Positions 9,548 through 57,021 of a stretch of DNA of 64,000 nt are shown piece after piece. Position 1 is the stretch's first letter, and the number at the start of each line of letters is the position of its first letter. Origin of the DNA: Centroscyllium fabricii (Eukaryota); the NCBI GenBank assembly GCA_051313645.2, contig JBNRSN020000014.1:120776001-120840000 (forward strand), read 5' to 3'. Position numbers and translations under genes: made by a program. Below the pieces are notes generated by a model. That model saw only the letters and a program-made list of their open reading frames with translations, had not been told where the DNA came from and did no database searches.

Positions 9548-10646
9548 TACATCGAGCATATAGCTGAGAAATTCTTGCCTGATAGCCAGTGTGGATTCAG
9601 AAATGGCAGAGGTATTACTGAGGTCGTTACTGCCAGCCAACTTCAGGAAAAGTGTTGAGAAAAAAACGTCACCGTTACTGGATCTTTGTTGATGTCACAA
9701 GGGCCTTTGATCCAGTCAGCAGAGTGGGCCTCTGGAAACTGCTGGCCAGAGTTGGCTGTCTTGAAAAGTTTATCCAGATGCTCTGCCAGTTCCATGATGG
9801 CCAGAGGCCAGAGCCATGGAAGATGCTGAAGTTTCCAAACCCTTCTCTGTCTTCAGTGGAGTCAAACAGGGTTGTGTTTTAGCTCCCACCTTGTTTGTTT
9901 CTGTGCTTACTAAAGCCTTCAGGAACTTAAAGGAGTATATTCGCTTCAAGACAGATGGCAAATTGTACAATCTCCACCGTCTGCAAACCAAACTAAGAGC
10001 TCTGCAGAAAATGTTCTTGTTTGCTGATGACTACCCTTGCTGCCCAAACAAAAGAGGACCTCCAAGTCATCACGGACCATTTCTCAGATACTTTTAAGAA
10101 ATTTGGTCTCACCATCAGTCTGAAGAAGATTGAAATTATATACAAGCCTGCCTTTGGAAAACCTTACATGCCACTGCATGTAACCATCAAAGAGCACTCG
10201 CTGTCTGTAGTGAATAATTTCACCGACCTAGGAAGCACCTTGCCACGTGATGCACGCCTAGATAATAAAGTGAACCACAGATTGTTTAAAGCCAGTATGG
10301 CTCTTACAAGGCGCCATGTGAGTGTGGTAAACCACTGTTTCCTGTATATATCCACCCTGTTATGTATATATCTGTATTACTGTAATCGTACTATTCTCCA
10401 TGTTGTACCATAGCCTATTGTGTGCGATTACCTGGACATGCCCATACTGGCTCCACCCACGACTCCTCCCTCCCAGGAGGAGGTATATAAGCGGCCGTCT
10501 CCCATCCCCCGGCCATTCCTGGGGACGGTCGACTAGCTGGTGCATGTCCACCATTTAGCGAATAAAAGCCGTATTGTTTCACCCTTCTAACTACTCGTCC
10601 ACGAGGTCGTTATTTCGGTCACAATTTTATTCGCTAAATTTTGAAG

Positions 10647-15934: not shown

Positions 15935-18900
15935 TGTGGTGATAGTTACCCTCTGCCCAGTAGGGGGCAACAGAGGGTTTACAGAAAGTGTAACCAGATT
16001 AAACAGTTAGCCTTGAGCAATGGCTGAACACACATACAAGCTGTCTCTGTCTCTGATTTAAACACATCACATGGTGTCAGAATTGCGATCTGAACCCACA
16101 ATGGAACTAACTTCCGCAGTGAAACCAGTCAGCTCCCGGTGAGTGAAAGTTTATGACAGCTATTTAAGCCAGGACTGAGATAACCAGAAGAGACTGAGAG
16201 AGAGAAAGAAAAAGTGTACTTACCTCACGTTGCTTAGCTTACTATCATGGCCACTCAAAGTCCTGCATTATTTCAGATTTCTCCCCCCTCCGAGTATGAT
16301 TTTACACGGCCGGAAGAGTGGCCATTGTGGATCAGCAGATTTCAACGTTTCAGACAGGCTTTGGGCCTCGATAAACAGGTACAGGAAAAACAGGTCAATA
16401 CCCTATTATATTTCATGGGAGCGGAGGCTGAAGCGATCGTCCGGTGCAGGAATATTACGGCTGATCAACTGAAAAGCTATGACACAGTTAAAATAGGATT
16501 GTCTAATCATTTCATCCCGCAGAGGAATTTGATATTCTAACACGCAAGATTCCATAGGCGCATGTAGGAGAAAGGCGAATCGTGTGATAGCTTCATCAAA
16601 GCGTTATATGAACTCATCGAACACTGTAAATATGGAGATATGCGGGATGAACTAATTAGTGACAGATTGGTTGTTCAACTAAGGGATTTTAAACTCTCTG
16701 GAAAGTTACAGATGGATCCAGACCTCACAGTTGACAAAGCAAAAACACAGGTTTTCCAAAGTGAAACAATAAAGAAACAGCAATCAATGCTTCAGAAAGA
16801 TAGTAATGAGGAGGAGGAGTCCATTGAAACCATAAGTGCCCCCCCCCCCCCCCACCAAGCAGGTCCCCAAAAACATTTTTCTACCAAATCAAGACAAACT
16901 GACTCACGTGAATATGTACAGAGGCCTCGCACTGGAACTCAAACTGGAACACATTTCCAAGCACAAAAGCGGAGTTGCAGATGGCGTGGCCGGAGTACAC
17001 ACAATAGACAAATCTGTCCAGCCAAAGATGTTAGCTGCAGGAATTGCCAGAAAAAGGGACATTTTGCTGCAGTTTGCCGATCCACACCTGCGGTTGCTGA
17101 AATATCAGAGGACGATGACAATGAGATAGCGTTCTTGGGGTCAATTGGAAATGGGCAGGACCAGCCGTCGACCATCACCCTAAGCCTGTGTGGCCACATG
17201 ACTGAATTCAAAATTGATACAGGGGCTGATGTCACTGTCATCCCGGAGTGCCTCTACAATGACCTAGGCCTAGAGGCTCTTCAGAGCACCTCTAAGATTC
17301 TTCAGGGGCCTGGTCAAGTCCCGTTAAATGTCAGAGGAAAAGTTTCAGCTACCCTGACCCGTGGTCCACGGTCTACAAAGCAGGTTGTGTATGTAGTACG
17401 CGGTCTACGGACAGCGCTCCTCGGTCGCCTTGCCATCATTTCCCTGCGTCTGGTGTCCAGGTTGGACCCACAAGTAGCAGAGACAGTATCTATGGATCTC
17501 GAACGGGAGGTCGGACAGCGGTTCCCCAGACTGTTTCAAGGGATTGGGCAATTGCAAGAGGAGTATCACATTCGCCTCAAGCCGGAGGCCAAACCTTTTG
17601 CTCTCTCTACACCCCGACGTGTCTCGCTCCCCCTTATGACCATAGTTAAGGAGGAACTAACCCACATGGAGCAACTGGGGATAATTGCAAGAGTTGAGGA
17701 ACCCACAGCCTGGTGCTCCGGAATGGTTGTAGTTCCAAAACCCAGCGGAAAAATCAGAATCTGTGTAGACCTAACAAAACTCAATGAAAGTGTCTGTAGA
17801 GAGCTGCATCTCTTACCCTGTGTAGAGCACACTCTGGGGCAGCTGAAAGATGCAAAGGTTTGTACAAAGCTTGACGCTCAATCTGGTTTCTGGCAAATAC
17901 CCTTGACAGAGGAGTCAAAACATCTTACCAGGTTCATCACGCCATTCGGACGTTACTGTTTCCACAGACTGCCCTTTGGAATATCCTCTGCCCCTGAGCA
18001 TTTCCTACGCCGCATGTCCCGCCTCCTTGAGGGACTTGATGGTGTCTTATGCCAAATGGATGATGTGTTGGTGTTTGGCGCAACCCAAGAACAGCACGAT
18101 CAGCGACTGTTTGCAATTCTTGGTAGACTACAGCAAGCTGGACTTACTCTTAACTCCAAATGTGAATTCGCCAAAACACAGGTGAAATTTCTCGGCCAGG
18201 TCATCGACGGGACCAGTGTCAGAGCAGATCCTGACAAAGTCAAGGCCCTCACACACATGGCCGCGCCAAGGAATGTATCTGAAATACACTGCTTCATGGG
18301 CCTGGTCAATCACTTGGGCAAATACATACCCCATCTAGCCGAGAAAACCAAGCCACTCTGGGATATCCTCAACAGGCAGACCTCATGGTATTGGGGACCC
18401 CAGCAGTCCCAAGCTTTCACTCAGATAAAGACGGAGCTAACCACCCTGCCAGGCCTTGCACTGTATGACCCCAATACACTCACTAAAGTGTCAGCTGATG
18501 CTTCATCGTTTGGCTTGGGTGCAGTTCGCAGGAACCGCAGGCACTTCGCACTTACACAGCAGCCCCCTGACGCTGATGAGCCTTCCATTCCCGATGACTA
18601 CAATGGGGATGCGGGTCCTGGAACTCCCTCACCAACAGAGGATACCCCACGTCCATCGGGTTCCAGACGATACCCTGAAAGGGTCCACAAGCTTTCTTCA
18701 TACCTCCAAGACTTTGCAACATGAATAGCCTAAGAACCAAGACACCTCATTGGGTCAGAATAATACCCGAGGTACTTGGTGGAGGGTTCAGGCAGTCGCC
18801 TTGTCCCTCCAAGCTTACTCTGCTTGCATTATTCGTGTTTTTTTAAAAAAAAGGAAAAAGAGATGCATTAGAGTTGTTATGTTTGTTATTTCTTAAGCAC

Positions 18901-21779: not shown

Positions 21780-22971
21780 CTGCAAAACAACATCGGGAGG
21801 TCAATGAGATTTACAGAGTGCATTAGAAATTGGAACGGTGCTTGAACCAATAAGGCAAAGAAAAGTTTTTTTTCTTCTTGCAACTTAGAATCATTTTAAT
21901 TGTCAATTAATGCTGGTTTGGAATTTTGCTAATTGTAGGCACATAGATAAGACTACTTGGCCATGCTGTCCTTCCTATGCATTTCTCAGCATCTCCACTC
22001 TTAAACATTACAGACTGATAATTAAGATCCTTGCAATTGTACAGTGCATGTCATTCACAATGTTTGCCCGACCCTGCTGAATAAATTGGTAGCCTCATAC
22101 CAACTACAACAAATGGTGTGGTTAGTACTTTATTATAGATAATAGGAAAGCAGATGATTAACTACAAAGCCACTCGAGGTGCTGGTGGGACTGAACATAC
22201 CCAGGGATGGTGATGGAGGAGTCTGGGACATTGACTGATAGTCATATTCACAGAATCATACCTATGTCAGGCAGTTCCTTGACTTGTCTGTGGCACAGCT
22301 ATCCCTAGATATTAATGAGGATGACATTGCAGGGTCGACTGGACTGGGTGTGCCTTTGGTGTGACTCAATTCAATACCTAGGTCGCAAGAAAATGTCTTA
22401 ATCTTTCTAGCGGTTTTATACAACTGAGTGGCTTCCTTGGCCACATCAGAGAACAGTTAAGGGTTAACCATTTTGATGTACATAACATAAGAAGTAGGAG
22501 CAGGAGTAGGCCATACGGCCCTTCGGGCCTGCTCCACCATTCAATAGGATCATGGCTGATCCGAACGTAGACTCACGTCCACTTCCCTGCCCTCTCCTGG
22601 TAACCCCTTATTCCCCTATCAGTTAGGAAACTGTCTATTGTGGCGACACGCCCACTGGGGCATCGAATCCGCCATGGGGACTTCACGGAGCAAAGCTTCG
22701 CTCATCCGGGTGACGCGACGACGTCACCACGTCGGCCGACGCGATGACGTCACCAACTGCGGGACCGTTTAAATATGCCTGTCTCGAGTGGTGGTTCTCT
22801 CTTTCTTGTTTTGTACTCGTTGATTAAAGCTGTGTTCTCTCTAGCTCTGGCTCACGTGTGGTTCCTACGCCTGCCGGCGCTACAGTGGTGACCCCGAACT
22901 GGAACGACTTCCAGAGAAGAAAAGCTACCGCAGGATCTGGGACCACCAGCCAAAGACTTTTATCAGAGAAC

Positions 22972-25900
22972 ATGGTAAACCCAAGAAACCAAGCTCCACG
23001 AACGCAGGGAGCTGGACAGAACGCCGGACGTGGATTGACTCTACCCGAGTTCTGGGAGCAACGGCCAGCGGCCTGGTTCGTCTGCATCGAGGCCAGCTGC
23101 CGCACACATGGCATCAACGGGGACGACCGCTACGACCTGGTGTTCACAGCCCTACCACAGACGACGATTGATCGGATGTGGTCAAAAATACAGCGCGTGC
23201 CCAGCGCAGGCAGGTATGAAACGCTTAAGGCCGCGCTTATCAAAAAATTTACCCCCTCCCAATTTGAGCGCGACTGCCAGCTCCTCGACCTCCCCGAACT
23301 CGGGGACGCAGACCCATCGGACCTCTTAGGTCAGATGCAAGCACTCACACCCAACCCGGCCTCCCTCTTCCGCACCGTCTTCCTCCTCAAACTGCCCCGC
23401 GCCATCAGACCGGCCTTGGCGGCCCTTGGCCACCGGAGCGATGACGAGCTCGGAGAGGAGGCCGACAGGCTCATGGAGGCGCAGCGCACCCGCTCAACCA
23501 CGTGCGACCCTAACTCCGCATCGGTAGAGCGCAGCCAATCACCCCCCAGGCACAACTTTACGCCTGAACCCAGGGCCCCGCGCCCGCCCAGACAACCGCG
23601 TCCCTCTAGCACCGGCTGGTGCTATTACCACACGCGGTTCGAACACAAAGCGCACCGCTGCGTCCAGCCATGCGCGTTCAAGCCACGGCCCAACTCAGCC
23701 CCCACCATGTCTGTAGGCCACACAGGAGCACTGCTCTTCGCCACAGACAGTGGTACAGGCCTCAGGTTCCTCTGCGACACAGGCGCGCAGCACAGCATTG
23801 TGCCAGCCTCCCCTGCAGAAACCAAACGAGGTACCCGGGGCCCACCACTAGCGGCAGCCAACGGCTCTAATATAAAAACGTACGGCACCCGCAAGCTAAC
23901 TATAACCCTTGCAAGCCACGCGTACACCTGGGATTTTGTAACGGCCCAGGTCACTTCTCCCCTCCTCGGGGCAGACTTCCTCTGCGCCTACGGCCTACTG
24001 GTCGATGTAACTCGGCGCCGTTTGGTGAATATAAACACCATGACGACCATCCCATGCTCCACAGGGCCCGCACTCGTGGCCCACGCGGCAGCCCAATGCC
24101 GCTCCAGGGACTCCGATGCCTACGGCACGCTCCTGGCAGAGTTCCCCGCCCTAACCAACCCCACGTTCACCGCCCGCAAGGCCAAACACGGGGTGGAACA
24201 TTTCATTACTACCACAGGCCCTCCCGTCCATGCCCACGCCCGTAGGCTCGACCCGGCCAAGCAGGAGATCGCGTGCACCGAGTTCCGCACTATGGAACAA
24301 CTCGGTATAATCCGCCGCTCCAGCAGCCCCTGGTCCTCTCCGCTCCACATAGCCCCCAAGCCCGACGGAGGCTGGCGCCCCTGCGGCGACTACCGCCGCC
24401 TTAACAATGCCACCACCCCGGATAGGTACCCCGTACCCCACATCCAGGATTTTTCCGCCAGACTAGCGGGTTGTACGATCTTTTCTAAGATCGACCTGGT
24501 GCGTGGCTACCACCAGGTTCCGGTACACCCGGCGGACATTCCTAAAACGGCCGTAATTACCCCCTTCAGACTCTTCGAGTTTCTTAGGATGCCCTTCGGC
24601 CTTAAAAACGCGGCCCAGGCCTTCCAGCGCCTCATGGACTCGGTCCTACGGGACTTGAAGTTCATCTTCGTCTACTTAGACGACATCCTCGTGGCCAGCA
24701 CCTCCCCCCAGGAACACCTCCTGCACCTCAGGACCCTGTTCCAACGCCTTACAGAACACGGCCTTATCTTAAGCCCCACTAAATGTAAATTCGGCCTCGA
24801 GACCATTGACTTCCTCGGCCACCGCATTTCCCAAACAGGGGCCATACCCCTGCCCTCTAAGGTGCAGGCGGTACAAGAATTCCCCCGCCCGCACTCCATT
24901 AAAGGGCTGCAGGAATTTCTGGGGATGGTTAATTTTTATAACCGCTTTATCCCGGGAGCAGCCGCTCTCATGACCCCCTTATACCAGGCCACCCGCGGGC
25001 AGTCCAATAAGGCTGCGGTCGAGTGGACGGCCGAAGCCGCCACAGCCTTTACCGCAACTAAAACGGCCCTGGCAAATGCCACCCTCCTAGCCCACCCTAG
25101 GCCCAACGCCAGAGTAGCCCTCACCACCGACGCCTCCGACCACGCGGTCGGGGACGTATTTGAGCACTGGACCGGCAACTCGTGGCAGCTCTTGGCCTTT
25201 TTCAGCCGGCAACTCCGGCCCCCAGAGGTTAAATACAGGTTGAGCACCGTTAATCCGTGTCCCGAATAGCCGGCAGCTTCAGTCTGCCGGCACAAATTGC
25301 CCCGACTGCACTGCGCATGCGCAAAATGGCAGCCCCCATCGTGGCTTCAGCGAATGATCTGCGCATGCACCGAGCGCATGCGCAGATCATTCAAAACAGC
25401 TGCGGGTGTTTTGAATGATCTGCGCATGCGTCACCGGACGGTTAGCGCATGCGCAGATAATTCAATACGGCCGCCCGTTATTTTCTCGACAGCTGAGCCC
25501 CGTGACTGAGGCGGACAGTCACTAGGCAACAGCTGTCAGCCTGAGTCCCGCTCGGCGGCAGCAGCAACCCCAAAGGCGATGGAGAGGGACGGCGGACCCG
25601 GGCCCGATCTGCGCATGCGCACGCCAGCCAATCGCAATGCTGCGCGCATGCGCGTGGCCATTTTGACTGGCGCGCATGCGCAGTGTCCAAACTCGTTCTC
25701 CCGGTTTTTTCCATTTCCCGGCACGGGCCTGGTCCCGCCCGTGCCCGATTAACGGTGCTCAACCTGTACAGCGCCTTTGATAGAGAGCTGCTCGCTCTCC
25801 ATCTGGCGGTACGACATTTTTGTTTCCTCTTAGAGGGCCGCCACTTTACAGCCTTCAGCGACCATAAGCCACTCACATTTGCGATGGCTAAGGTCGCTGA

Positions 25901-27332
25901 ACCCTGGTCGGCCAGGCAGCAGCGCCAACTCGCGGCCGTGTCGGAATTTACAACCGACATCCAGCATATTTCCGGCCGCGACAACATGGTCGCTGACTGC
26001 CTCTCACGCCCCACCATTAACGCCGCCCAAATGGCGGTCGATTACGCCCAGCTGGCCGCTGACCAGCTGGCCGACCCCGACCTACTCAACGCAGCAACTA
26101 ATCTCCCTGGCCTCCACTTGGCCAATATCGCGCACGGCCCCGCTACCACCGTCGTCTGCTGCGACGTATCCTTACCGCAACCCAGGCCCGTCGTGCCCCA
26201 CGCTTGGAGGCAACATATCTTTAGGACCCTCCATGACCTGTCCCACCCCGGCGCCCGTGCGTCCATTAAGTTAATATCGGCCCGTTTCGTATGGCGCGGC
26301 CTGCGCAAAGACGTCCGCGCCTGGGCCAGCTCCTGCATAGCCTGCCAGCGCTCCAAAGTGCATAAGCACATCAGGGCACCGCTGGAAAATTTTAAAGTAC
26401 CGGCCAGGCGTTTTGACCATGTCCACATCGATCTCGTCGGGCCACTATCGCCATCCCGGGGCCACACGCACCTAATGACCATGGTCGACCGCAACACTCG
26501 CTGGCCAGAAGCAGTCCCCCTCACCGCCACCGGCACCACGGACTTGGCCAGGGCGTTCATCGCCACCTGGGTCGCCCGATTCGGCATGCCCACAGACATC
26601 ACCTCTGACAGAGGACCCCAATTTACGTCGGCATTATGGGCGGCCATCGCCCGCGACCTCGGGGTAACGCTACACCGAACCACCGCATACCACCCACAGG
26701 CGAACGGCCTATGCGAACGGTTCCACCGCTCGATGAAGGCATCACTACGGGCCACGCTAAAAGACGCATCGTGGACCGACCGCCTTCCATGGGTCCTGCT
26801 CGGGCTGCGCTCGGCAGTCAAAGAAGACCTCAACGCCTCGGCAGCGGAGCTCATCTACGGCCAAACTTTAACGGTGCCGGGCGAGTTCCTGGCTGAGCCC
26901 AACGCTCCCTGGTCAGCCGACCAGTATTTAAAAGATTTTGCTAACCCGGCACGAGCTTTCCAGCCACTACCAGTGGCCCGGCACGGAGAGCCGGCAGCTC
27001 GGGTGCCGGACAACATTAAAAATGCTAAATTTGTGTTCGTCCGGCGCGACGGACACCGATCTCCACTACAGCCACCTTACGATGGCCCCTACAGAGTGCT
27101 TCGGGCGGGAGCTAAAGCTTTCGAAATACAAATGGGTAACAGGACTGACACTGTAACAATAGACCGGCTCAAGCCGGCACACGTGATAGCGGGCGAGACT
27201 ATGGTCCCCGCACAACCACCTCAACGCGGTCGCCCTCCCGCAACAAAACCCGCCCACACTCCACCGCTGAACCAGAGGCTACAAGCAACACGGTCCGGCC
27301 GCATCATCCGGCCACCCCAACGGCATACATAG
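22972..27332 (+). pseudogene. Single gag-pol ORF, open except for the MITE at 25236-25768
   Basis: LPEFW, CHCC gag, LCDTGA, YLDD, TTDASD, integrase DLVGP/SDRG/E, GPY; removing the MITE restores EVKY|SAFDRELL. Confidence 0.92.
25236..25766. mobile_element. TA-TSD MITE, copy 2
   Basis: TIR caggttgagcaccgttaatc / gattaacggtgctcaacctg; duplicated TA. Confidence 0.93.
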
Positions 27333-33759: not shown

Positions 33760-36700
33760 AGGGAGTGGTAGTAAAAAAGGGCACTTGAGTATATCATTTA
33801 ATTGTAGTGCAATTGGTGGTATTGATTTGATTTAATTTAATTTGAATTAATTAAAGGGTAAGTCATGACAGCACAGCTCGGCCCCGTGGCATGCTCCTCC
33901 TGCACTATGTGGGAAATCAGGGACACATCCTGTGTTCCTGACGACCATGTGTGCGGGGAGTGTATCCAGCTGCAGCTACTGGCAGACCACAATACATAAT
34001 GGAGCATTCACGATGCTGAGGACATTGTGGATAGCACGTTTAATGTGTTGGTCACACCGCAGGTAAAGGCTGCACAGGCAGGAAGGGAATGGGTGACCAC
34101 CAGGCAGAGTAGTAGGCACAGGCAGGTAATGCAGGGGTCCTCTGTGGCCATTCTCCTCTCAAACAGATATACCACATTGGATATTGTTGAGGGAGATGGC
34201 TTATTGGGGGAAGGCAGCAGCAAACTTCCTGGCACCATGGGTGGTCCTGCTGCACAGGACAGGAGGAAAAAGAGCGGGAGAGGTACAGTGATAGGGGATG
34301 CTATTGTAAGGGGAATAGATAGGCATTTCTGCAGCTGCAAATGAGACTCCAGGATGGTATGTTGCCTCCCTGGTGCAAGGGTCAAGGATGTCTTGGGGCA
34401 GCTGCAGGGCATTGTGGAGGGGGAGGGTGAACAGCCAGTTGTCATGGTGCATATAGGTACCAAAAACATAGGTAGAAAATGGGATGAGGTCCTAAAAGCT
34501 GAATTTAGGGAGCTGGAAGGTAAATTTAAAAATAGGACCTCAAAGGTAGTGATCTCAGGATTGCTACCAGTGGCACGTGCTAATCAGAGTAGACATAGAA
34601 GGATATTTCAGATTAATACGTGGCTTGAGGAATGGTGCAATGGGGTGGGATTCAAATTCCTGGGACATTGGAACTGGTTCCGGGGGAGGTGGGACCAGTA
34701 CAAACTGGACGGTTTGCATCTGGGCAGGACCAGGACTGATGTCCATGGGGAAGTGTTTGCTAGTGCTGTTGATAAGGGTTTAAACTAAAATGGCAGGGGG
34801 TTGGGAACCTGTGCAGGGAGACAGAGGAAAGGGAAGCAAGGATAGAAGCAAAAGACAGGAAGGAGAAAAGCTAAAGTGGAAGCCAGAGAAATCAAGGGTG
34901 TAAATCAAACAGGGCTACAGTAAATAATAATTCTAAAAGGACTAAGAGTGTTAAAAAATCAGGCCTGAAGGCTTTGTGTCTTAATGCGAGGAGCATTCAT
35001 AATAAGGTGGCTGAATTAGCTGCGCAAATAGAGGTACACAGATATGATATAATTGGAATTACAGAGACATGGCTCCAGGGTGACCAAGGCTGGGAATTCA
35101 ACATCCAGGGGTATTCAATATTCAGCAAGGACAGGAAAAAAGGAAAAGTTGGTGGGGTAGCATTGCAGGTTAAAGAGGCGATTAACATAATTGTAAGGAA
35201 GGATATTAGCTTTGATGATGTGGAATCTGTATGGGCAGAGCTGAGAAATACCATGGGGCAGAAAACGTTAGTGGGAGTTGTATACAGACCTTCAAACAGT
35301 AATGCTGAGGATGGGGATGGCATTAAATGGGAAATTAGAGACGCGTACAATCTGAGAATATGGGGCTCCCCTTTCAAAACTGAGATGAGAAGAAACTTCT
35401 TCACTCAGAGGGTGGTAGGTCTGTGGAATTTGCTGCCCCAGAGAGCTGTGGAAGCTACTACTTTGAATGAATTTAAAACCGAGATAGATAGTTTCTTGGA
35501 AGTAAAGGGAATTAGGGGTTACCGTGAGCGGGCAGGTAAGTGGGCGTAAGGCTAGGTTCAAATCGGCCATGTGATCTCCTGGACAAGTTTCGATCACCTA
35601 GATGGGTCGGAGAGGAATTTCCCAGATTTTTTCTCCCAAATTGGCCACTGGGTTTTTGTCTGGCTTTTCGCCTCTCCCGGGAGATCACATGGGTTCGGGC
35701 AGGATGGAGAGTGAAAGTAGATTTGAGGTTAGGATCAGATCAGCCATGATCTTGTTGAATGGCGGAGCAGGCTCGAGGGGCCGATTGGCCTACTCCTGCT
35801 CCTATTTCTTATGTTCTTATCATGGGAGACTTCAATTTACATATAGATTGGGCTAACCAAATTAGTAACAATGCTGTGGAGGAGGAATTCCTGGAGTGTA
35901 TACGGGATGGTTTCCTGGACCAATATGTCGAGGAACCAACTAGAGATCAGGCCATCTTAGACTGGGTATTATGTAATGAGAACGGATCAATTAGCAATCT
36001 TGTTGTGAGAGGCTTCTTGGGGAGAAGTGATCATAATATGATAGAATTCTTCATTAAGATGGAAAGTGAGGTAGTTGACTCAGAGACTAGGGTCCTGAAT
36101 TTAAATAAAGGAAACTATGATGGTATGAGGCGCGAGTTGGCTAGGATAGATTGGGGAACGGTACTTAAAGGGTTGATGGTGGATAGGTAATGGCAAACAT
36201 TTAAAGATCGCATGGATGAACTACAGAATTTGTTCATCCCTGTTTGGCATAAAAATAAAACAAAAAGGTGACTCAACCGTGGCTAACAAGGGAAATTAGG
36301 GATAGCATAAGATCCAAGGAGAGGACATATAATTTGGCCAGAAAAAGCAGCAAACCTGAGGATTGGGAGCAGTTTCGGACTCAGCAAAGGATGACAAAGG
36401 GATTAGTTAAGAGGGGGGAAATTGAGTATGAGAGTAAGCTTGCAGGAAACATAAAAACTGACAGTAAAAGCTTTTATAGATATGTGAAAAGAAAAAGATT
36501 GGTGAAGTCAAGCATAGGTCCCTTGCAGTCAGAATCAGGGGAATTTATAATGGGGAACAAAGAAATGGCAGACCAATTAAATACATACTTCGGTCTGTCT
36601 TCACAAAGGAGGACACAAATAACCTCCCAGAGTGTCGGGGAACATAGGGTCTAATGAGAAGGAGGAATTAAATGAAATCAGTATTTATAGGGAAATGGTG

Positions 36701-37575
36701 TTAGGGAAATTGATGGGATTGAAAGCCAATAAATCCCCAGGGGCTGATAATCTACATCCTAGGGTACTTAAGGAAGTGGCCCTAGAAATAGTAGATGCAT
36801 TGCTGGTCATCTTCCAAAATTCTATAGACTCTGGAAAAGTTCCCATGGATTGGAGGGTAACTAATGTAACCCCACTATTTAAAAAAGATGGTAAAGAGAA
36901 AACGGTTAATTATAGACCGGTAAGCCTGACATCGGTCGTGGGGAAAATGCTAGAGTCCATTATAAAAGATGTAACAGCAGAGCACTTGGAAAATTGTGAT
37001 AGGATCAGCCAAAGTCATCATGGATTTACAAAAGGTAAATCATGCTTGCCTAATCTACTGGAATGTTTTGAGGATGTAACTTGTAGAATGGATAAGGGAG
37101 AACCAGTTGATGTGCTGTATTTGGACTTTCAGAAGGCTTTCATTAAGGTCTCGCATAAGAGATTAGCATGTAAAGTTAAGGCACATGGGTTTGGGGGCAA
37201 GGTATTGACTTGGATAGAGAACTGGTTGGCAGACAGGAAGCAAAGAGTTGGAATAAACAAGTATTTTTCCGAGTGGCAGGCAGTGACTAGTGGGGTACCG
37301 CAGGGATCGGTGCTGGGACCCCAGCTATTCACAATATATATAAATGATCTAGACGAGGGAACTAAATGTAATATCTCCAAGTTTGCAGACGACACAAAGC
37401 TGGGTGGGCGTGTGTGCTGTGAGGAGGATGCAGAGGAACTCATCTATGATTTGGACAGGTTGGGTGATTGGGCAGATGCATGGCAGATGCAGTATAATGT
37501 GGATAAATGCGAGGTTATCTATTTCTGTGGCAAAAACAGGAAGACAGATTATTATCTGAACGGCAATAGATTAGG
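33760..37575 (+). mobile_element. Long CR1 LINE: decayed ORF1 (Cys motif plus SGNH esterase) and ORF2 (APE endonuclease, RT)
   Basis: VIGDAIVR, CCLPGARV, VHIGT, DGLHL; CLNARSI, ITETWL, GDFN, SDH; YRPVSLTS, GVPQGSVLGP, KFADD. Confidence 0.93.
35345..35820 (+). mobile_element. Second CR1 3' fragment (with structured module) inserted in the endonuclease of the long CR1
   Basis: Interrupts EIRDA...IMGDFN; ends ttcttatgttcttat. Confidence 0.88.
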
Positions 37576-38988
37576 AATTTCTTTCAGTTCCTCCCTCTCA
37601 TTAGACCCTATGTTCCCCGACAACTCTGGGAGGTTATTTGTGTCCTCCTTTGTGAAGACAGAATCAAAGTATATATTTAATTAGTCTGCCATTTCTTTGT
37701 TCCCCATTATAAATTCCCCTGATTCTGTCTGCAAGGGACCTATTTCACCAATCTTTTTATCTTCACATATCTATAAAAGCTTTTACAGTCAGTTTTTATG
37801 TTCCCTGCAAGCTTACTCTGATAATCTATTTCTCCCCTCTTAATTAATCCCTTTGTCCTCCTTTGCTTAATCCTAAACTGCTCCCAATCCTCAGGTTTAC
37901 TGCTTTTTTTCGCCAATTTATATGTCCTCTCCTTGGATCTTATGCTGTCCCTAATTTCCCTGGTCAGCCACGGTTGAGTCACCTTTTTTGTTTTATTTTT
38001 ATGCCAAACTGGGATGAACAAATTCTGTAGTTCATCCATGTGATCTTTGAATATCTGCCATTACCTGTCTACCATCAACCCTTTGAGTGTAATTCCCCAA
38101 TCAATCCTACCCAACTCGTGCCTCAAACCATCATAGTTTCCTTTATTTAAATTCAGGACCCTAGTCTCTGAGTCAACTACTTCACTCTCCAACTTAATGA
38201 AGAATTCTATCATATTATGATCGCTTTGACCCAAGGGGCCTCTCACAACAAGATTGCTAATTAATCCTTTCTCATTACATAATACCCAGTCTAAGATGGC
38301 CTGATCTCTAGTTGGTTCCTCGACATATTGGTCCAGGAAACCATCCCGTAAACACTCCAGGAATTCCTCCTTCACAGTATTGTTACTAATTTGGTTAGCC
38401 CAATCTATATGTAGATTAAAGTCACCCATGATAACTGCTGTGCCCTTATTGCATGCTTCTCTAATTTCCCTTTTAATGCCATCCCCAACCTCTGCATTAC
38501 TCTTTATTGGTCTATATACCACTCCCACTAATGTTTTCTGCCCCTTGGTATTTCTCAGTTCTACCCATACAGATTCCACATCCTCAGAGCTAATATTCTT
38601 CCTTGCAATTGTGTTAATCCCCTCCTTAACCAGCAATGCTACCCCACCTCCTTTTCCTTTTTGCCTATCTTTCCTGAATATTGAATACCCCTGGATGTTG
38701 AGTTCCCAGCCTTGGTCACCCTGGAGCCATGTTTCCATAATCCCAATCATATCATATTCATTTACCTCCAGTTGCACAGCTAATTCATCTACCTTACTGC
38801 GAATGCTCCTTGCATTAAGACACAAAGCCTTCAGGCTTGTTTTTTTAACGCTCCTAGACCTTTTAGAATTATTATTTACTGTGGCCATGTTTGAGTTAAA
38901 CCCTTGATTTCTCTGACTGCCAGCTTTGTTTTTCTCCTTCCTGTCTTTTGCTTCTATCCTTGTTCCCCTTTCCTCTGTCTCCCTGCTC
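37576..38988 (-). mobile_element. Inverted CR1 ORF2 5' segment, followed by a plus-strand CR1 tail (38989-39131)
   Basis: APE domain ORF 38061-39080; homologous to 34815-36680. Confidence 0.9.
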
Positions 38989-39252
38989 AATGCTAAAGGG
39001 ATCAAGTGATATGGGGAGAAAACAGGGACAGGATACTGAATTTGAATGATCAGCCATGATCTCATTAAATGGCGGAACAAGCTCGAGGGGCCGAATGGCC
39101 TACTCCTGCTCCTATCTTCTATGTTTCTGTGTAATAGTTTGGATCCAACTGATTCACGAATGATTCATCTCCAATATGCATGTCACTATTTGAAGAGTTT
39201 TCCTGGTGTCCCGGCTAATATTTATCCCTGAACCAACATCAATAAAACCGAG

Positions 39253-48344: not shown

Positions 48345-49215
48345 CGGGAGAGCATCGCGGGGAGTCGGGCATCACAGGGGGAGTCGGACATCGCGGGGGG
48401 AGTCGGGCATCGCGGGGGGAGTCGGGCATCGCGGGGGAAGTCGGGCATCGCGGGGGTCTCGGACATCGCGGGGGGAGCTGGTCATCGCGGGTAGGTCGGA
48501 CATCGCGGGGGGAGTCGGGCATCGTGGGGGGAGTTGGGCATCGTGGGGGGAGTTGGGCATCGCGGGGGGAGTCGGGCATCGCGGGGGGAGTCGGGCATCG
48601 TGGGGGGAGTCAGACATCGCGGGGGGAGTCAGACATCGCGGGGGGAGTCAGGTATCACGGGGTGAGTCGGGCATCGCGGGGGAGTTGGACATCGCGGGTG
48701 GGAGTCGGACATCGCGGGGGTGTCAGACATCGCGGGGGAGTCAGACATCGCGGGGGAGTCAGCCATTACAGGGGAAGTCGGGCATCGTGGGTGGAGTCGG
48801 GCATCGCGGGGAGAGTCGGGCATCGTGGGGGGAGTCGGGCATCACGGGGGGAGTTGGACATCGCGGCGGGTCTCGGACATCGCGGGGGGGTCTCGGACAT
48901 CGCGGGGGGAGTTGGACATCACGGGGGGAGTCGGACATCGCGGGGGGAGTCAGACATCGCGGGGGGAGTCAGACATTGCGGGGGGGTCAGACATCGTGGG
49001 GGGAGTCAGATATCGCAAGGGGGTCTCGGACATTGCGGGTGGGTCTCCGACATCGCGGGGGGAGTCAGGCATCGCGGGTGGAGTCGGACATCGCGGGGGA
49101 GTCAGACATCGTGGGGGAAGTCGGGCATCGCGGGGGGAGTCGGACATCGCCAGGGGAGTCAGACATCGTGGGGGGAGTCGAGCATCGCGGGGGGAGTTGG
49201 ACATTGTGGGGGTGG
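48345..49215. repeat. G-rich minisatellite, ~20-bp unit GGGGGAGTCGG(G/A)CATCGCG, roughly 40 copies
   Basis: Directly visible tandem array. Confidence 0.95.
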
Positions 49216-49730
49216 GGGGGTCAGCTGATTGCGGTGGTCCGACTCCGATCGCGTACTGGTAAGCTTTTGAGCTGGGGGGAAACACCCCTGCACCACAAGT
49301 AGTGCAATAAAAACACCTCATGGATCCGGCCCTCTCGTCTCCTTTTATCTGCCGGGTTTCCCAAGGCCCAGGAATCAGGACCTTCCTGAGTGAAAAATAA
49401 AAATCCAGTTAAAATGGAAGCCGCAACTTCCTTAAAAGATTTCAGTGACTGACCTGCCTCTTCGGAGTAGGTTGGTCGCCAGCCCCCTGTCCCGCCTCCG
49501 TTGAAACTGGTAGTGGCAGGTTGGGGTCAGGTTTGAGAATTTTAAAATTTTTACCTTCCCACCCAACCCCAACCCACCCATCCTTGGGGGTTAAAATTCG
49601 CGTCCCCTCACCCACCCCCACCAAGACATTCATCAATCCTTCAAAAGGGAATTGGATAAATACTTGAGGGAGAAAAAATTGCAGGGATTTGGGGAAAGAG
49701 TGGGGGAGGTCGGACATTGCAAGGGGAGTC

Positions 49731-51846
49731 TGTCACAGGGTGCCTGTTCCTTTAAGTATGAGAAACAGTTTTTGTGGTGCTTCACAGCTGTTTTGAGGAC
49801 TGGTTTCCTTTGTTATGTCATTAATTATTCTATTTATCTGTCTATTGCTAGTTGTGTCCTGCTCTCATTGCCTCCAAGTTATTGGCTATCACCAAATGGT
49901 TTGCTTGCTGGTTTTAGTTCATAAACTGGAGGTAGGCATGAGAGCAGCGCGGGATCATTGTATGGTAATGTGTTACTGAACTGGACTTCCACCACACATT
50001 CTTCAGGCCACTGGACGAAGTGGTTACTGCTGTTGAGCTGAGTGGCCGTCAGAGGCAAGGAGGTTTGGAGATCGACTGACTCAGCCTTTACTTTGCACTC
50101 TGCTATTTCAGGTGCTCAGGCTGAGTTGCCCGACAGGGGCATTGGGGTGGAACTCATATCACTCTGCCTTGACAGTGCGCCCTGCTATCGGGAACCCAGC
50201 AATGGACAACTCATATGTGGAGTAAGGGCGTTCCCCTGCTTGTGGATCGGAATCCACTACTTGGACATTCGTTTCTTCATCCGAACCCAGGTTTGGACAT
50301 TGGATACCTGTATGCAGAAGCTGTTCCCAAATCCTCTACGAAGTATTTGGATTGTGATGTCCTACTCGCAGAGGAGAACTTGTTCGTTTCTCTTTAAGTA
50401 TTTGGATTGTGGTTGTCCTGCTTCTAGAGGAGAGCTCGTTTAAGTTGGACAGTTATGCCTGGACTTGTATTCTTCGGGAGAATGACGCGCTTGGTTGCGT
50501 GGCACCCCTCTATCCATTACTCGCTATTTTGGGAAGTCTGTGCCAGTCTTTAGATGAGACTTGTGTTCAATATGTTTCTTATATAATTGTATGTTTATGC
50601 TATTTTATGGGGTTGTGTATTAAAGGAGTTTAGTTATATAAGATGTTTCAGTGTCTCTGCATTTGGGCCCCGCCTTCATTCCATTTACACCCATCCGTTA
50701 CAGAATGATCCCGCCATGCCAAATTTGGGGCTCAGCAGACACTGTAGCGTCTAAGCACTCCTTAAAATTTTTTTTTGTAGACTGTTGTCTCTTCTCTGTA
50801 CCCTCCGCCCACCCTATTTCGGCATATTGGGTATTTGGGCCGTCGCTGTCGGCCCTTAAGGGGGGGGGTCCTGTCACAGGGTGCCTGTTCTTTTAAGTAT
50901 GAGAAACAGTTTTTGTGGTGCTTCACAGCTGTTTTGAGGACTGGTTTCCCTTGTTATGTCATTAATTATTCTATTTATCTGTCTATTGCTAGTTGTGTCC
51001 TGCTCTCATTGCCTCCAAGTTATTGGCTATCACCAAATGGTTTGCTTGCTGGTTTTAGTTCATAAACTGGAGGTAGGCATGAGAGCAGCGCGGGATCATT
51101 GTATGGTAATGTGTTACTGAACTGGACTTCCACCACACATTCTTCAGGCCACTGGACGAAGTGGTTACTGCTGTTGAGCTGAGTGGCCGTCAGAGGCAAG
51201 GCGGTTTGGAGATCGACTGACTCAGCCTTTACTTTGCACTCTGCTATTTCAGGTGCTCAGGCTGAGTTGCCCGACAGGGGCATTGGGGTGGAACTCATAT
51301 CACTCTGCCTTGACAGTGCGCCCTGCTATCGGGAACCCAGCAATGGACAACTCATATGTGGAGTAAGGGCGTTCCCCTGCTTGTGGATCTGAATCCACTA
51401 CTTGGACATTCGTTTTCTGTTTCATCCGAACCCAGGTTTGGACATTGGATACCTGTATGCAGAAGCTGTTCCCAAATCCTCTACGAAGTATTTGGATTGT
51501 GATGTCCTACTCGCAGAGGAGGACTTGTTCGTTTCTCTTTAAGTATTTGGATTGGGATGTCCTGCTTCTAGAGGAGAGCTCGTTTAAGTTGGACAGTTAT
51601 GCCTGGACTTGTATTCCTCGGGAGAATGACGCGCTTGGTTGCGTGGCACCCCTCTATCCATTACTCACTATTTTGGGAAGTTTGTGCCAGTCTTTAGATA
51701 AGACTTGTGTTCAATATGTTTCTTATATAATTGTATGTTTATGCTATTTTATGGGGTTGTGTAATAAAGGAGTTTAGTTATATAAGATGTTTCAGTGTCT
51801 CTGCATTTGGGCCCCGCCCTCATTCCATTTACACCCATCCGTTACA
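49731..51846 (+). mobile_element. Non-coding two-LTR retroelement: ~970-bp LTRs around a 169-bp interior
   Basis: LTRs 49731-50702 and 50872-51846 (TGTCAC...GTTACA), TSD gagtc, PPT aaggggggggg, self-complementary PBS. Confidence 0.93.
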
Positions 51847-52790
51847 GAGTCGGACATTACGGGTGGGGACGGACAACTGGATTGCTCCTCGAAAGGGCTC
51901 GAAAGAGCCGGAGCAGACTCAATGGGCCAGTGGCTTCCTTCTCTGCTGTGCTAGTCAATGATTCTATGATTTCCGGCTATTACAGACACAGTAACAGATT
52001 TGCAGATCTGCGTCACAAGTGAGGCCTTTCTGATCTCTCTTGAAAGAAATAACATTAGAGAAGACTTTAACAGTGACTTTGAGCAATTGCAATTATGACG
52101 ATATTTGATCTTTTCAGCGATCATGAGCGATCAATCTATTTTGTGCATCCATTTCATTTTGACACTGAAATTCCTTGCGTTTCTGTCCTATTGTCCAGAC
52201 ACTCACCACAAAAGCCCAGCTGCTTCCCTCACTGTGTTGCCATTCCTCTTCTTCTGAGAAGTGGTTCAAGGAAAAGCTCGCCTCTGCTCTTGATCCAGCA
52301 ACGTTTGGGTTTCCATGACAACTGCCAGTGAGTAAGGGAACTGGAGTGGAGTTTGAACTGTTCTGTTGGGGGGGGGTGGGGGTGGCTTCAGTGCAGTAAA
52401 CACACAAAATGTCTGCATTCTAGTTAAAGTGAAAGGGGGAAGACTCGGAATTTAGTAGAAAATGTTTCTGGACAGAGTGAGCCTAATTCTCGGAATTCTG
52501 CTCCGTCTCCAGGCACAGCTGCTGGCGAGTGGGCATCCTGCTGCTCCCCTCAGAATTACAATCCTGTAAATATTTAAACAGAGAGCTTGAGGGGGAAAAG
52601 GAAAATTCAAAAGAAAAGAATGTACAACTGTGCAGAAGGAAATAAATTTAGCAGAGACCGCAATAAAAAGAGAAAAGGCTTGAAACGCAGGTGAAAAATA
52701 GGACGATAAAGAGTGTAAAGGGAGGGCAGCAATGGAAAAAGACTGTCTGGAAACACAAATCATCATTTAATTAGTGACATTTCTGAGGGT

Positions 52791-53123
52791 TAATTGTAAG
52801 AAGTCACACAACACCAGGTTATAGTCCAACAGTTTTATTTGAAATCACAAGCTTTCGGAGCGCCGCTCCTTCATCAGGTGAAGTGAAGAGATTCATTTAA
52901 ACACAGCATATATATAGAGGGAGAGAACAATGTAGTCTCTCCAACTGTTCTCTCTCTCTATATATATATATATGCTGTGTTTTAATGAATCTCTTCACTT
53001 CACCTGATGAAGGAGCTGCGCTCCAAAAGCTTGTGATTTAAAATAAAACTGTTGGACTATAACCTGGTGTTGTGTGACTTCTTACAATTGTCCACCCCAG
53101 TCCAACACCGGCACCTCCACATA
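52791..53123. mobile_element. Palindromic Penelope-like element made of two inverted termini
   Basis: ~140-bp inverted arms; 12-bp TSD atttctgagggt at 52779-52790 and 53124-53135. Confidence 0.85.
52845..52881 (-). ncRNA. Minimal hammerhead ribozyme motif (intact core)
   Basis: UCAC-CUGAUGA-AGGAGC GGC GCUCC-GAAA-GCUU-GUGA. Confidence 0.75.
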
Positions 53124-55255
53124 ATTTCTGAGGGTAACATTGCTACCGGAATAACATTCTTCATTGCATATATATTTTGTAAACACCATTTAATTTTTCT
53201 ATTGCTCTTTCTGTTGCTCTAATTCACTTCTCTCTGTTCCCCATGGTCACCATTCGCTGACAGTCCAGTTTCCTTTAGCTGGAGGAGGGGTATGGGAGGA
53301 GGGGTATGGGAGGAGGGAGTATGGGAGGACAGTCTTTATTAGCTTCTGACTGAGTCTCAATGGAGCTGTCAGGTTTGGACTGAGGCTCAAACAGCGATCT
53401 CAATCGGAGTGATGTGCCAAAGGGATTCCATCAGAAGCTGAGGGGGAGCTCAAGACAATGAAGCCCATTGAGGTCAATGGAAATGAACAGTGGGAGTGCC
53501 GATTCGCTATCGCCCGTTTTACACAATCGCACAAAGTTTAAATGTCCTGGGGGAATTTTTGCACTATGCTGAAAATGGAATAAGGCAAAAACGTAGAAGA
53601 TAAAAACAATATAATACAATGCTCGACTTGGCTAATTTACTAAATTTATCTACCATTTTCTTACTGCCATCTTATCAGAAACATAGAAACATAGAAAAAT
53701 AGGAGCAGGTGTAGGCCATTCGGCCTATCAAGCCTGCTCCGCCATTCAATATGATAATGGCTGATCCTCGATCTCAATACCATATTCCCGCTCTCTCCCC
53801 ATACCCCTTGATGCCTTTTGTGTCTAGAAATCTATCTATTTCCTTCTTAAATATATTCAGTGACTTGGCCTCCACAGCCTTCTGTGGTAGAGAATTCCAC
53901 AGGTTCACCACCCTCTGAGTGAAGAAATTTCTCCTCATCTTAGTCCTAAATGTCCTACCCCGTATCCTGAGACTGTGACCCCTCGTTCTGGACCCCCCAG
54001 CCAGTGGAAATATCCTCCCTGCATCCAGTCTGTCTAGCCCTGTCAGAATCTTATACATTTCAAAGAGATCCCCTCGCATTCTTCTAAACTCTAGTGAATA
54101 CAAGCCTAGTCGACCCATTCTCTCCTCATACAACAGTCCTGCCATCCCAGGAAACAGTCTGGTGAACCTTCGCTGCACTCTCTTTATGGCAAGTATATCC
54201 TTTCTTAGGTAAGGAGACCAATACTGCATACAGTACTCCAGGTGTGGTCTCACCAAGGCCCTGTATAACTGTAGTAAGACATCCTTGCTCCTGTACTTAA
54301 ATCCTCTTGCAATGAAGGCCAACATACCATTTGCCTTCCTAACTGCTTGCTGCGCCTGCATGTTTGCTTTCAGTGACTGGTGTACAAGGACACCCAGGTC
54401 CCTTTGTACATCAACATTTCCCAATCTATCATCATTTAAATAATACTCTGCCTTTCTGTTTTTCCTACCGAAGTGGATAACTTCACATTTATCCACGTTA
54501 TACTGCATCTGCCATGTATTTGCCCACTCACTCAACTTGTCTAAATCGCCTTGAAGCCTCTTTGCATCCTCCTCACAACTCACAATCCCACCTAGTTTCG
54601 TGTCATCAGCAAACATGGAAATATTACATTTGGTTTCCTCATCCAAATCATTGATATATATTGTGAATAGCTGGGGCCGAAGCACTGATCCCTGCGGTAT
54701 CCCACTAGTCACTGCCTGCCACCCCAAAAAAGACCCATTTTTTACTACTCTCTGTTTCCTGTCTGTTAACCAATTTTCAATCCATGCCAGTATATTATCC
54801 CCAATCCCATGTGCTTTAATTTTGTACACTAACCTCTTATGTGGGACTTTATCAAAGGCCTTCTGAAAATCCAAATACACCACATCCACTGGTTCTCTCT
54901 TATCTATTCTACCAGTTACATCCTCAAAGAATTCCAGTAGGTTTGTCAAACACAATTTGCCTTTCATAAATCCATGTTGACTTTGTCTAATCCCGTTGAT
55001 ATTTTCTAAGTGTCCTGTTATCACATCCTTTATAATAGACTCTAGCATTTTCCCTACTATTGATGTTAGGCTGACTGGTCTGTAGTTCCCCGTTTTCTCT
55101 TTCCCTTCTTTTTTAAACAGTGGGGTTACATTTGCCACCCTCCAATCTGCAAGAACTGTTCATTAATCTATAACATTTTGGAAGATGACAACCAATGCAT
55201 CCCCTATTTCCATGGCTCCCTCTTTTAGTACTCTGGGATGCAGATTATCAGGCCC

Positions 55256-55797
55256 TGTCATAGGTTGGATTCCCCTTTAAATTCTAGGTGGCCTCTTCTC
55301 CCTTAAATTGGCCAGTACCTCGTTTACTACTGCATACACCTGATTGGACAGCCCTAATCAACCAATATATCTTGAGCTGTTTATAAGCTTCCACTTTGCA
55401 CCAGGAGTTTGCCAGATCGTTAATTCTGTTACTGTGATACATGTGTTCTGTTCCTAGCTCTCTGATCCAGTCGATTTGTGTTACTGACCTGCTTACAGAA
55501 GAATTGGATTCTACTCTGCTGGAACTGTGTGTTGGAGTTTGTCCCTTCGGTGAAGTGGACTACCTGGAGAATTACTGTTTCTGTATTTGGACTTATTGCT
55601 CTCTCCTACCTGAACTCTGGTTTGGACTTGTTACTCTCTATTACCTGAACTCTGGTTTGGACTTGTTTGTCTCCGTGAACTTACTGCAGTTATTGACTTT
55701 ATGTTTCTATATCTTCTGACGACTCGGAAATAAAGGAATTTTACTTCTACGCTGGTTTCCGGTGTTTTGCATTTGGGCCCTACCACCAACCATTACA
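55256..55797 (+). mobile_element. Solo LTR, sushi-like
   Basis: TGTCA...TTACA, TSD ggccc/ggcct, TATA, AATAAA; motif tgcatttgggccc shared with the 49731 LTR. Confidence 0.85.
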
Positions 55798-57021
55798 GGC
55801 CTTGGGGATTTATCGGCTTTCAGTCCCATTAATTTCTCCAGCACTAATTTTTTACTAATACTAATTTCCTTTAATTCCTCCTTCTCACTAGACCCTTGGT
55901 TCCTTAGCTTTTCTGAGAAGTTATTTGTGTCCTCTACCGTGAAAACAGAACCAAAGTATTTGTTTAATTGCTCTGCCATTTCCTTGTTCCCCATTATAAA
56001 TTCTCCAGCTTCTGACTGTAAGGGACCTACATTTGTCTGCATTAATCTTTTTCTTTTTACATACTTTAGAAGCTTTTACAGTCTGCTTTTATGTTCCTTG
56101 AAAGTTTACTCTCATACTCTATTTTTCCCTTCTTAATCAATCTCTTGGTCCTTTTTTGCTGAACTCTAAACTGCTCCCAACCTTCAGGCTTGCTACTTTT
56201 TCTGGCAACTTTATATGACTCCTCTTTGGATCTAATACAATCCTTAATTTCTTTAGTTAGCCATGGTTGGACCACTTTTCCTTTTTTTGCGCCAGAAAGG
56301 AATGTATAACTTGCAATTCATGCATTCCTCCATAAATGTTAGTCATTGCCCATCCACCGTCATGCCTTTTAATGAAGCTCCCCAATCTATCATAGCCAAC
56401 TCACTCCTCATACCTTCATAGTTTCCTTTATTTAGATTTAGGACCCTAGTTGCGGATTGGACTTCTTCACTTTCCATCTTAATGAAGAATTCTATCATGT
56501 TATGGTCACTCTTCCCTAAAGGACTCCGCACAACAAGACTATTAATTAACCCCTTCTCATTGCACAATAACCAATCTAGGGTAGCCTGTTCCCTCGTTGG
56601 CTCCTCAACATACTGGTCTAAAAAACCATCTCGTACACACTCCAGGAATTCATCCTCCACAGTCTTATTACTAATTAGGTTTGGCCAGTCTATATGTAGA
56701 TTAAAGTCCCCCATGATTACTGTAGTACCCTTGTTACATCTATCTCTAATTTCCTGTTTGATGCCGTCCCCTACATTTCCACTACTGTTTGGAGGCCTAG
56801 AGACAACTCCCACCAATGTTTTCTGCCCCTTGGTGCTTCTTAGCTCCACCCAGACTGATTCTACATTTTGATTTTCTGAGCCAATATCATTTCTCACTAT
56901 TGCTCTGATTTCATCCTTTACTATCAACACCACCCCACCTCGTTTTCCTTTTTGCCTGTCCTTCCTGAATATCGAATATCCTTGGTTATTCACCTCCCAG
57001 CCTTGGTCACCTTGCAACTAT

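Follow-up and report, generated by a model that had tools for sequence, protein, structure and literature searches.

The window, which is the whole 64-kb stretch of DNA analysed here, contains a 2,116-bp LTR retroelement at positions 49731-51846. LTR sequence makes up 92% of the element, and its two LTRs, both with TG...CA ends, enclose a short interior. The features assigned to it are listed below in window coordinates.

49726-49730, + strand: left target-site duplication (TSD) GAGTC, in one unit of a 19-bp G-rich repeat
49731-50702, + strand: 5' LTR, 972 bp, TGTCA...TTACA, from sequence comparison
49731-49948, + strand: predicted U3, 218 bp, placed from the primer position and fold-back arm lengths
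49920-49925, + strand: TATA-like box CATAAA, 29 nt 5' of the predicted start
49949-49959, + strand: predicted 11-nt self-primer GCGGGATCATT, the predicted RNA 5' end, from covariation and fold-back junctions
50619-50624, + strand: poly(A)-type signal ATTAAA, 84 nt from the LTR end
50623-50671, + strand: 5' arm of the predicted U5/leader stem, conserved core 50649-50671
50703-50871, + strand: interior, 169 bp, between the two LTRs
50704-50714, + strand: 11-nt primer-binding site (PBS) AATGATCCCGC, one base (G) past the LTR end
50727-50763, + strand: decayed gag start and 3' arm of the predicted U5/leader stem, from homology to coding-type families
50780-50871, + strand: what is left of the pol stop region and 3' UTR found in the parent lineage, 75-82% identical over some 80-100 columns
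50858-50868, + strand: polypurine tract (PPT) AAGGGGGGGGG, followed by TCC and the 3' LTR, from sequence
50872-51846, + strand: 3' LTR, 975 bp, from sequence comparison
51847-51851, + strand: right TSD GAGTC, matching the left one

The two LTRs differ by 12 substitutions over 971 aligned bases (1.24%) and by 3 indels, and the 3' LTR carries AATAAA where the 5' LTR has ATTAAA. The coordinates, the LTR and interior lengths, the near identity of the LTRs and the perfect 5-bp TSD reported in a preliminary description of this DNA all hold. So does the complementarity that it noted between 50704-50714 and 49949-49959, 29 nt after the CATAAA at 49920, the two 11-mers being exact reverse complements. 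That description had the interior consist of a PBS motif and a PPT alone, which was found to be incomplete, as a gag-start remnant and a pol-end/3' UTR remnant are also present. The gag-start remnant has lost its start codon and has a 2-nt deletion. No ATG open reading frame longer than 106 aa was found in the element, the reading frames of the LTRs differ between its two LTRs, and none of the 89 LTRs compared contained a polyprotein remnant. An Rfam search of 49700-51900 gave no match at E ≤ 1 (no tRNA, 5S or ribozyme), and no tRNA gene was found within the 64-kb window. The insertion lies in an outlying unit of the 19-bp G-rich repeat (49700-49730/51847-51870), 0.5 kb from a tandem array of 45 copies at 48359-49212. 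This target is not common to other copies of the element.

When the 7.2-Gb genome that contains the element was searched with an exact 18-base pattern of LTR end and PBS, 3,870 occurrences were found, compared to 0 for the reversed-pattern control. The sequence then reached TGTCA at the short-interior distance (interior 151-178 nt) in 3,776 of these, a test that a random 5-mer would pass in roughly 3 of 100 cases. Another 1,199 junctions are of the sister types, in which PBS base 9 is A or T; these junction counts pool all subfamilies and count tandem units separately. A search for LTR-interior-LTR junctions gave 2,611 candidates, and the 40 that were scored all matched at 97-100% along almost the entire query. 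One hundred records were fetched. Thirty were the best matches, 30 came first among the sister matches, and 40 were the first loci in order of position on contig C1; two tandem arrays occur twice among these records. The interior measured 160-172 nt in 43 of the 44 PBS units found at the position-ordered loci. Contigs from four sequencing runs gave deep coverage of the element in two runs (one organism) and patchy coverage in the two others, which has no bearing on expression.

Coding relatives and the candidate helper

A genome search for DUF4939 (sushi-type Gag) gave 21,882 candidates, from which 150 matches were scored. Two of the 30 gag loci fetched resemble the element in having the same U5 end and a similar PBS, and 20 longer stretches around coding relatives were retrieved for alignment. 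The first 60 bases or so of the interior align to the PBS and first gag codons of coding elements. Identity was 74-76% to a 2-kb family (PBS AATGATCCGGC) and 64-71% to a full-length family (PBS AAYGATCTGGC) over 58-62 columns for these two nearest coding-type families, and 69% over just 29 columns for a third family. The last 90 bases or so correspond to the pol stop region, 3' UTR and PPT, with 75-82% identity (70-74% for the third family). The interior retains the PBS, the gag bases predicted to pair with U5, the pol-end/3' UTR remnant and the PPT.

The full-length family encodes DUF4939/Retrotrans_gag, protease, RT, RNase H, integrase, SH3_Tf2-1 and chromodomain domains. Its LTR pairs are 95-100% identical, and it gave 2,237 matches to a 33-base junction pattern, a number not directly comparable with the 18-base counts. 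Because both ends of the interior align to this chromodomain-bearing family, the element is regarded as an internal-deletion derivative of a chromovirus lineage, and because Gag, RT/RNase H and chromodomain integrase are absent in the element but present in the parent, it is regarded as a derivative and not as an autonomous member. The parent Pol was closest to Ty3, which does not place the parent within the chromoviruses. The Atlas cluster nearest to the parent Gag was a DUF4939 Gag cluster, mostly from chordates (score 0.97), and a PDB search with the parent Gag gave no match. The domain set and the Atlas cluster point towards a placement of the parent in the Fungi/Vertebrates chromovirus cluster. 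The proposal in the preliminary description of a non-autonomous derivative of a sushi-type element, mobilised as a unit, was supported both by this coding parent lineage and by the primer/PBS covariation described below.

For the LTRs of the mini family, as we call the short-interior copies, alignment with those of the coding families was confined to the last 70-160 bases (63-76%) and a short patch in the centre. A pattern search for a coding element with the PBS of the element gave 13 matches, all of another PBS type, and one for a coding element with its LTR start gave 2 matches, both coding-type LTRs; such exact patterns miss mutated copies. As the LTRs have diverged and no coding match to the PBS or LTR start was found, the split is old, and any present helper is a candidate. 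The helper would most likely be the lineage with PBS AAYGATCYGGC, the closest relative found, a choice in which we have reasonable confidence. The divergence of the LTRs beyond alignment over most of their length, and the existence of further young sushi-type families (LTR pairs >99%), would also suit a self-priming element that is mobilised by a different or now-extinct sushi-type family. We consider this unlikely, although by no means negligibly so, because the interior is closest to the AAYGATCYGGC lineage, which is itself abundant and young.

A second derivative of the same lineage was found at L144-L152 (e.g. L145:683-2635, G000:C667:97523200-97531200). Its interior is approximately 1.97 kb in 7 of the 9 fetched copies, five of which have a single 613-650-aa frame, and its LTR pairs are 98-99.8% identical. 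The copy that was scanned contained Gag, protease and chromodomain, without RT or an integrase core. Another Ty3/gypsy pol region, distinct from that of this lineage, has become nested within a copy of the 2-kb family (L151:1704-5708).

Pairing between the predicted RNA 5' end and the PBS

Pairing was surveyed at 141 junctions, at each of which the best partner of the 11-nt PBS was sought in the upstream 1,250 bases with G-U pairs allowed; two of the 30 gag loci yielded no junction that could be parsed and were left out. All 30 sister records paired over the full 11 bases, as did 26 of the 30 best matches and 33 of the 40 position-ordered loci. The 2-kb family gave 10 of 13, and the sushi-type gag loci, with quite different PBSs, gave 24 of 28. 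As an estimate of chance, an 11-mer complement of the PBS was present in 5 of 20,000 shuffled LTRs. In 85 of the 100 fetched mini records, 11/11 pairing was accompanied by a TATA-like box 24-33 nt upstream, and in other copies and families the TATA-like position at the same offset reads CTTAAA, TATAAT or TATAAG.

The primer/PBS pair was GCGGGATCATT/AATGATCCCGC in the type of the window element and GCTGGATCATT/AATGATCCAGC in 24 of the 25 sister copies whose PBS ends in CCAGC, and the coding-type families had GCCGGATCGTT/AATGATCCGGC and GCCAGATCGTT/AACGATCTGGC. At primer base 3 and PBS base 9, the pair is G:C, T:A and C:G in the window type, these 24 sister copies and the coding-type families, respectively. 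Further sushi families have unrelated 11-mers, mostly with a TATA-like box 24-33 nt upstream. Judged from these sequences, the 11-nt PBS and its LTR complement change together across the subfamilies and coding relatives, and the element likely primes its own reverse transcription with the first 11 bases of its RNA. Among the sushi-type gag loci L031-L060, at least seven different 11-nt PBSs occur, and every type has a complement of its own in the LTR; base 12, the one that directly follows the PBS, was C in all 28 that could be parsed.

The preliminary description had also paired catgcc, behind the PBS, with ggcatg. This match is present in the window copy, but only 2 of the 85 single-unit copies have both halves intact, and ggcatg, being upstream of the proposed start, would be absent from the RNA. 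It was rejected as a second helix; catgcc itself stems from a 5-nt duplication and a likely CpG change. Tf1-type priming requires a pretzel of three duplexes, according to the secondary description given in PMC10085805. A stem between the LTR end and the sequence behind the PBS (the U5/leader stem) had z = -4.7 in the window copy and z = -2.8 in two coding elements, and was formed in nearly all of the 21 sequences folded. In an alignment of 11 sequences, which were related and hand-picked, 97.9% of the cells were paired, compared to 30-41% in slid controls. Two-sided changes were seen in 3 of 17 stem pairs, which was not above shuffles (109 of 500). In coding elements the sequence behind the PBS is the start of gag. 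The stem of the window copy extends to 50763, about where the gag homology stops, which suggests why that piece of gag was retained. In these models, the conserved second helix is predicted to be the U5/leader stem and not catgcc/ggcatg, and would correspond to one of the duplexes of the Tf1 pretzel. In coding sushi elements, the gag start codon sits in the predicted stem.

The third pretzel duplex, which would join the LTR behind the primer to sequence 5' of the PBS, was inconsistent, at -1.3 to -13.2 kcal/mol in 22 copies; 6-7 bp are possible in the window and sister subfamilies, and the other subfamilies showed it weakly or not at all. In its minimum-energy fold, the predicted RNA lacked the primer/PBS duplex, and forcing this duplex cost 3.8 kcal/mol. 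Since the primer duplex and the U5/leader stem together form a pseudoknot, the folding program could not hold both.

The distance from the primer to the LTR end is 754 nt in the window copy, with medians of 758-796 nt in the mini family, compared to 162-531 nt in coding loci with a TATA-like box. In one gag locus without a TATA-like box, the complement was 791 nt upstream. Of 89 mini LTRs, 85 carry the motif A(A/T)TAAA at 69-85 nt from the LTR end, and all 5 coding LTRs compared carry it at 69-74 nt. Such a signal of the poly(A) type so near the LTR end indicates that the excess length is R, and implies a predicted R of approximately 690 nt and a U5 of approximately 60 nt in the window element, for an inferred cleavage site. 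The unusually long R/U5 of about 750 nt in the preliminary description is thus correct as to length and exceeds that of coding relatives, but nearly all of it would be R. The doubling of R might serve a minimum packaged length or a more efficient strand transfer, both of which are guesses.

Fold-back insertions at the predicted primer boundary

At one position-ordered locus (L134), the PBS was followed by an inverted U3 in place of the interior, within a 6-bp TSD. A search for this fold-back pattern gave 23 matches and 0 in the control; three matches share flanks, leaving 21 events. Perfect TSDs were found in 17 of these, a 4/5-base match in one, and three were unresolved. The 17 events with perfect 5- or 6-bp TSDs comprised 11 of the type LTR-PBS-inverted U3 and six of the type whole element plus PBS-inverted U3. 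The direction switched at PBS base 11-12, the inverted arm was as long as U3 in 19 of 20 measured fold-backs, with 0-3 mismatches, and base 13 matched the interior solely where U3 gives the same base.

A genomic inversion between the PBS and the primer motif of the 3' LTR was excluded as the source of the mini fold-backs, because none of the 23 continued into an inverted PPT. A switch at base 11-12 is what self-priming predicts, and the fold-backs are best read as cDNAs whose plus-strand end, the copy of the primer, annealed to the primer motif, was extended through U3 and was integrated. About half of Tf1 cDNA molecules keep a single-stranded PBS copy at the 3' end, as described in PMC11042837. 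A switch of template inside the 11 homologous bases would be another way to produce the fold-backs, and would need no free end at that point. In the coding lineage, 3 similar matches were found, one with a perfect TSD; one of the three, L198, may be of the genomic inversion type.

Where U3 predicts a base other than C at base 12, C was found in 3 of 6 mini fold-backs and in 2 of 2 coding ones, and one fold-back event had A where C was predicted. As a speculation, the extra C could be a copy of the G of the RNA cap; an untemplated base or the C of the interior itself would explain it too. A broader reading, which we put forward tentatively and regard as rather doubtful, is that of a long-lived animal Tf1/sushi parasite, stripped to the minimal signals for self-priming and plus-strand synthesis and left with no more of gag than the U5-pairing bases, in which the fold-backs record the 11-nt primer boundary and the C at base 12 copies the RNA cap. 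If true, capped self-priming in vertebrate-type sushi elements would gain genomic, in vivo evidence.

These observations also bear on the primer itself. The complement of a tRNA 3' end is expected to begin with TGG in the PBS, and the PBS region of the element begins with GAATG (the tRNA comparison covered the TGG start only). A mobile family whose primer is a small RNA of the host, such as a tRNA or half-tRNA, with the LTR complement kept as a parental relic, would be compatible with the start at 49949 being a prediction, and half-tRNA primers do exist in Ty1/copia according to PMC6317226. It appears improbable nonetheless: a relic would not give the compensatory changes from G:C to T:A to C:G, at least seven unrelated sushi-type PBSs each have an LTR complement at a TATA-like offset, and the fold-backs switch at base 11-12.

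Spread of the family and comparison with known elements

TSDs and ages were determined for the 85 single-unit copies with both LTR starts, with 15 tandem, truncated or rearranged records excluded. A TSD was found in 80 of them, of 5 bp in 74 and of 6 bp in 6 (L028, L077, L078, L095, L143 and others), and 74 distinct 5-mers occurred among 76 copies. The divergence between the LTRs of a copy had a median of 0.41%, with 3 of 80 pairs identical, compared to approximately 3-6% between copies. The 89 extractable LTRs, 0.97-1.26 kb long, fell into six clusters (2-41 members) and four singletons, so that the short interior is common to at least six LTR subfamilies. The check proposed in the preliminary description, the same short interior at many loci with differing TSDs, thus turned out positive, with thousands of loci and TSDs that differ among the sampled copies. 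Recent mobility applies to the family, which is young, but less so to the window copy, as 73 of 80 dated copies have a closer LTR pair.

Because the element has no genes, we infer that the family is mobilised in trans. It is very probably a gene-less family that arose by internal deletion of a Tf1/sushi-type chromovirus, is likely self-primed and likely borrows Gag, RT/RNase H and integrase from a coding relative. Spread mainly by DNA-level duplication (segmental duplication, gene conversion or tandem recombination) instead of reverse transcription is very unlikely. Tandem arrays are present in 8 of the 100 fetched records (two arrays fetched twice) and three fold-back matches have common flanks, as such duplication would produce, but TSDs differ at nearly every locus, and LTRs far closer within than between copies are a signature of reverse transcription. 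A one-off post-insertion deletion that left a never-mobile short interior can be dismissed, as the interior, although plainly a deletion product of a coding element, recurs with the same breakpoints at thousands of loci and in all of these subfamilies, and the sampled copies have their own TSDs and near-identical LTR pairs. Tandem LTR-I-LTR-I-LTR arrays were seen at L081/L082, L093/L094, L105, L121, L123 and L022, and extra tandem units made up 7 of the first 100 junction matches. The array at L121 has a single TSD at its bounds, and its neighbouring LTRs differ by 0.1-0.3%.

In the proposed cycle of the self-primed family, Pol II would start the transcript at 49949, and two pairings would form together, one of RNA bases 1-11 with the PBS and one of U5 with the gag remnant. 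The helper RNase H would cut after base 11, leaving an 11-nt primer, from which minus-strand DNA would copy U5 and the long R and then jump to the 3' R. The PPT would prime the plus strand, and insertion by the helper integrase would duplicate 5 bp, or sometimes 6 bp, of the target.

Self-priming was elucidated in Tf1 of fission yeast, and it is described as a common feature of animal sushi elements in the sources consulted. LARDs and the plant chromovirus derivatives noaCRR/CentA have long LTRs and no coding capacity and depend on a related coding element; their interiors are non-coding and of kilobase length, and their primers are tRNAs. The element resembles them in its long LTRs and lack of coding sequence, but its interior is 160-174 nt. 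The closest system is the Tf1/sushi group (Tf1, Tf2, Tj1 and Tosmo; vertebrate sushi-ichi and Amn; the V-clade of Ty3/gypsy chromoviruses in GyDB). As described for that group in PMC10085805 and PMC6317226, the element has a putative self-primer at the predicted 5' end, a PBS behind the LTR that pairs with it, a further duplex between PBS-adjacent sequence and the LTR, TG...CA ends and a PPT, and it descends directly in sequence from a chromodomain-bearing family in this genome. Unlike that group, it is without any gene and its third pretzel duplex was not clearly found, and its LTRs are approximately twice the length of those of the parent, with the long predicted R.

The defining features of TRIMs, an LTR pair, a PBS and PPT, no protein and TSD-flanked mobility, were all found in the element. 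It shares with biv-TRIM and with the zebrafish LTR-11_DR of the Helenus group, as described in PMC10886601 and PMC6934838, the LTR-PBS-PPT-LTR layout without protein, a short deletion-derived interior, tandem arrays and thousands of copies (2,618 internal portions for LTR-11_DR). It differs from TRIMs in its length of 2,116 bp, compared to a limit of 1,000 bp given in PMC10886601, in its high proportion of LTR and in predicted self-priming instead of tRNA priming, and from the Pol III TRIMs Cassandra, Helenus and Ajax and from retrozymes in that its LTR contains no tRNA, 5S or ribozyme sequence. In its predicted priming the element resembles Tf1/sushi, and in its layout a TRIM, but it has no genes that would make it an autonomous Tf1/sushi element and exceeds the 1,000-bp limit for TRIMs. 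Among the papers searched, none described an animal LTR family that is both gene-less and self-priming; Repbase and Dfam were outside this search, and the family may already be catalogued there. Gene-less LTR parasites and self-priming are both already known, and no new mechanism is shown. Its thousands of replicates, with their compensatory changes, make the family a natural deletion map of the cis-signals, and the fold-back insertions allow the end of the primer to be read from DNA alone.

Elsewhere in the window, three Ty3/gypsy pol regions with protease, RT, RNase H and integrase were found at 10638-14571, 16568-18724 and 22828-27332. One has a DUF7041 Gag, none gave a chromodomain match, and all are unrelated to the element LTR; lacking LTR similarity, they were rejected as its partner. 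Fragments of LINE-type RT and endonuclease lie at 36623-37684 (+), 38061-39164 (-) and 53774-57017 (-). A 35-bp tandem repeat at 55586-55667, the unit of which resembles an internal LTR repeat of a coding sushi-type family, is possibly a solo LTR of that family. An inverted repeat at 52792-53089, with 135-nt arms that are 94% complementary and a 28-nt spacer, is possibly a small DNA transposon or a fold-back.
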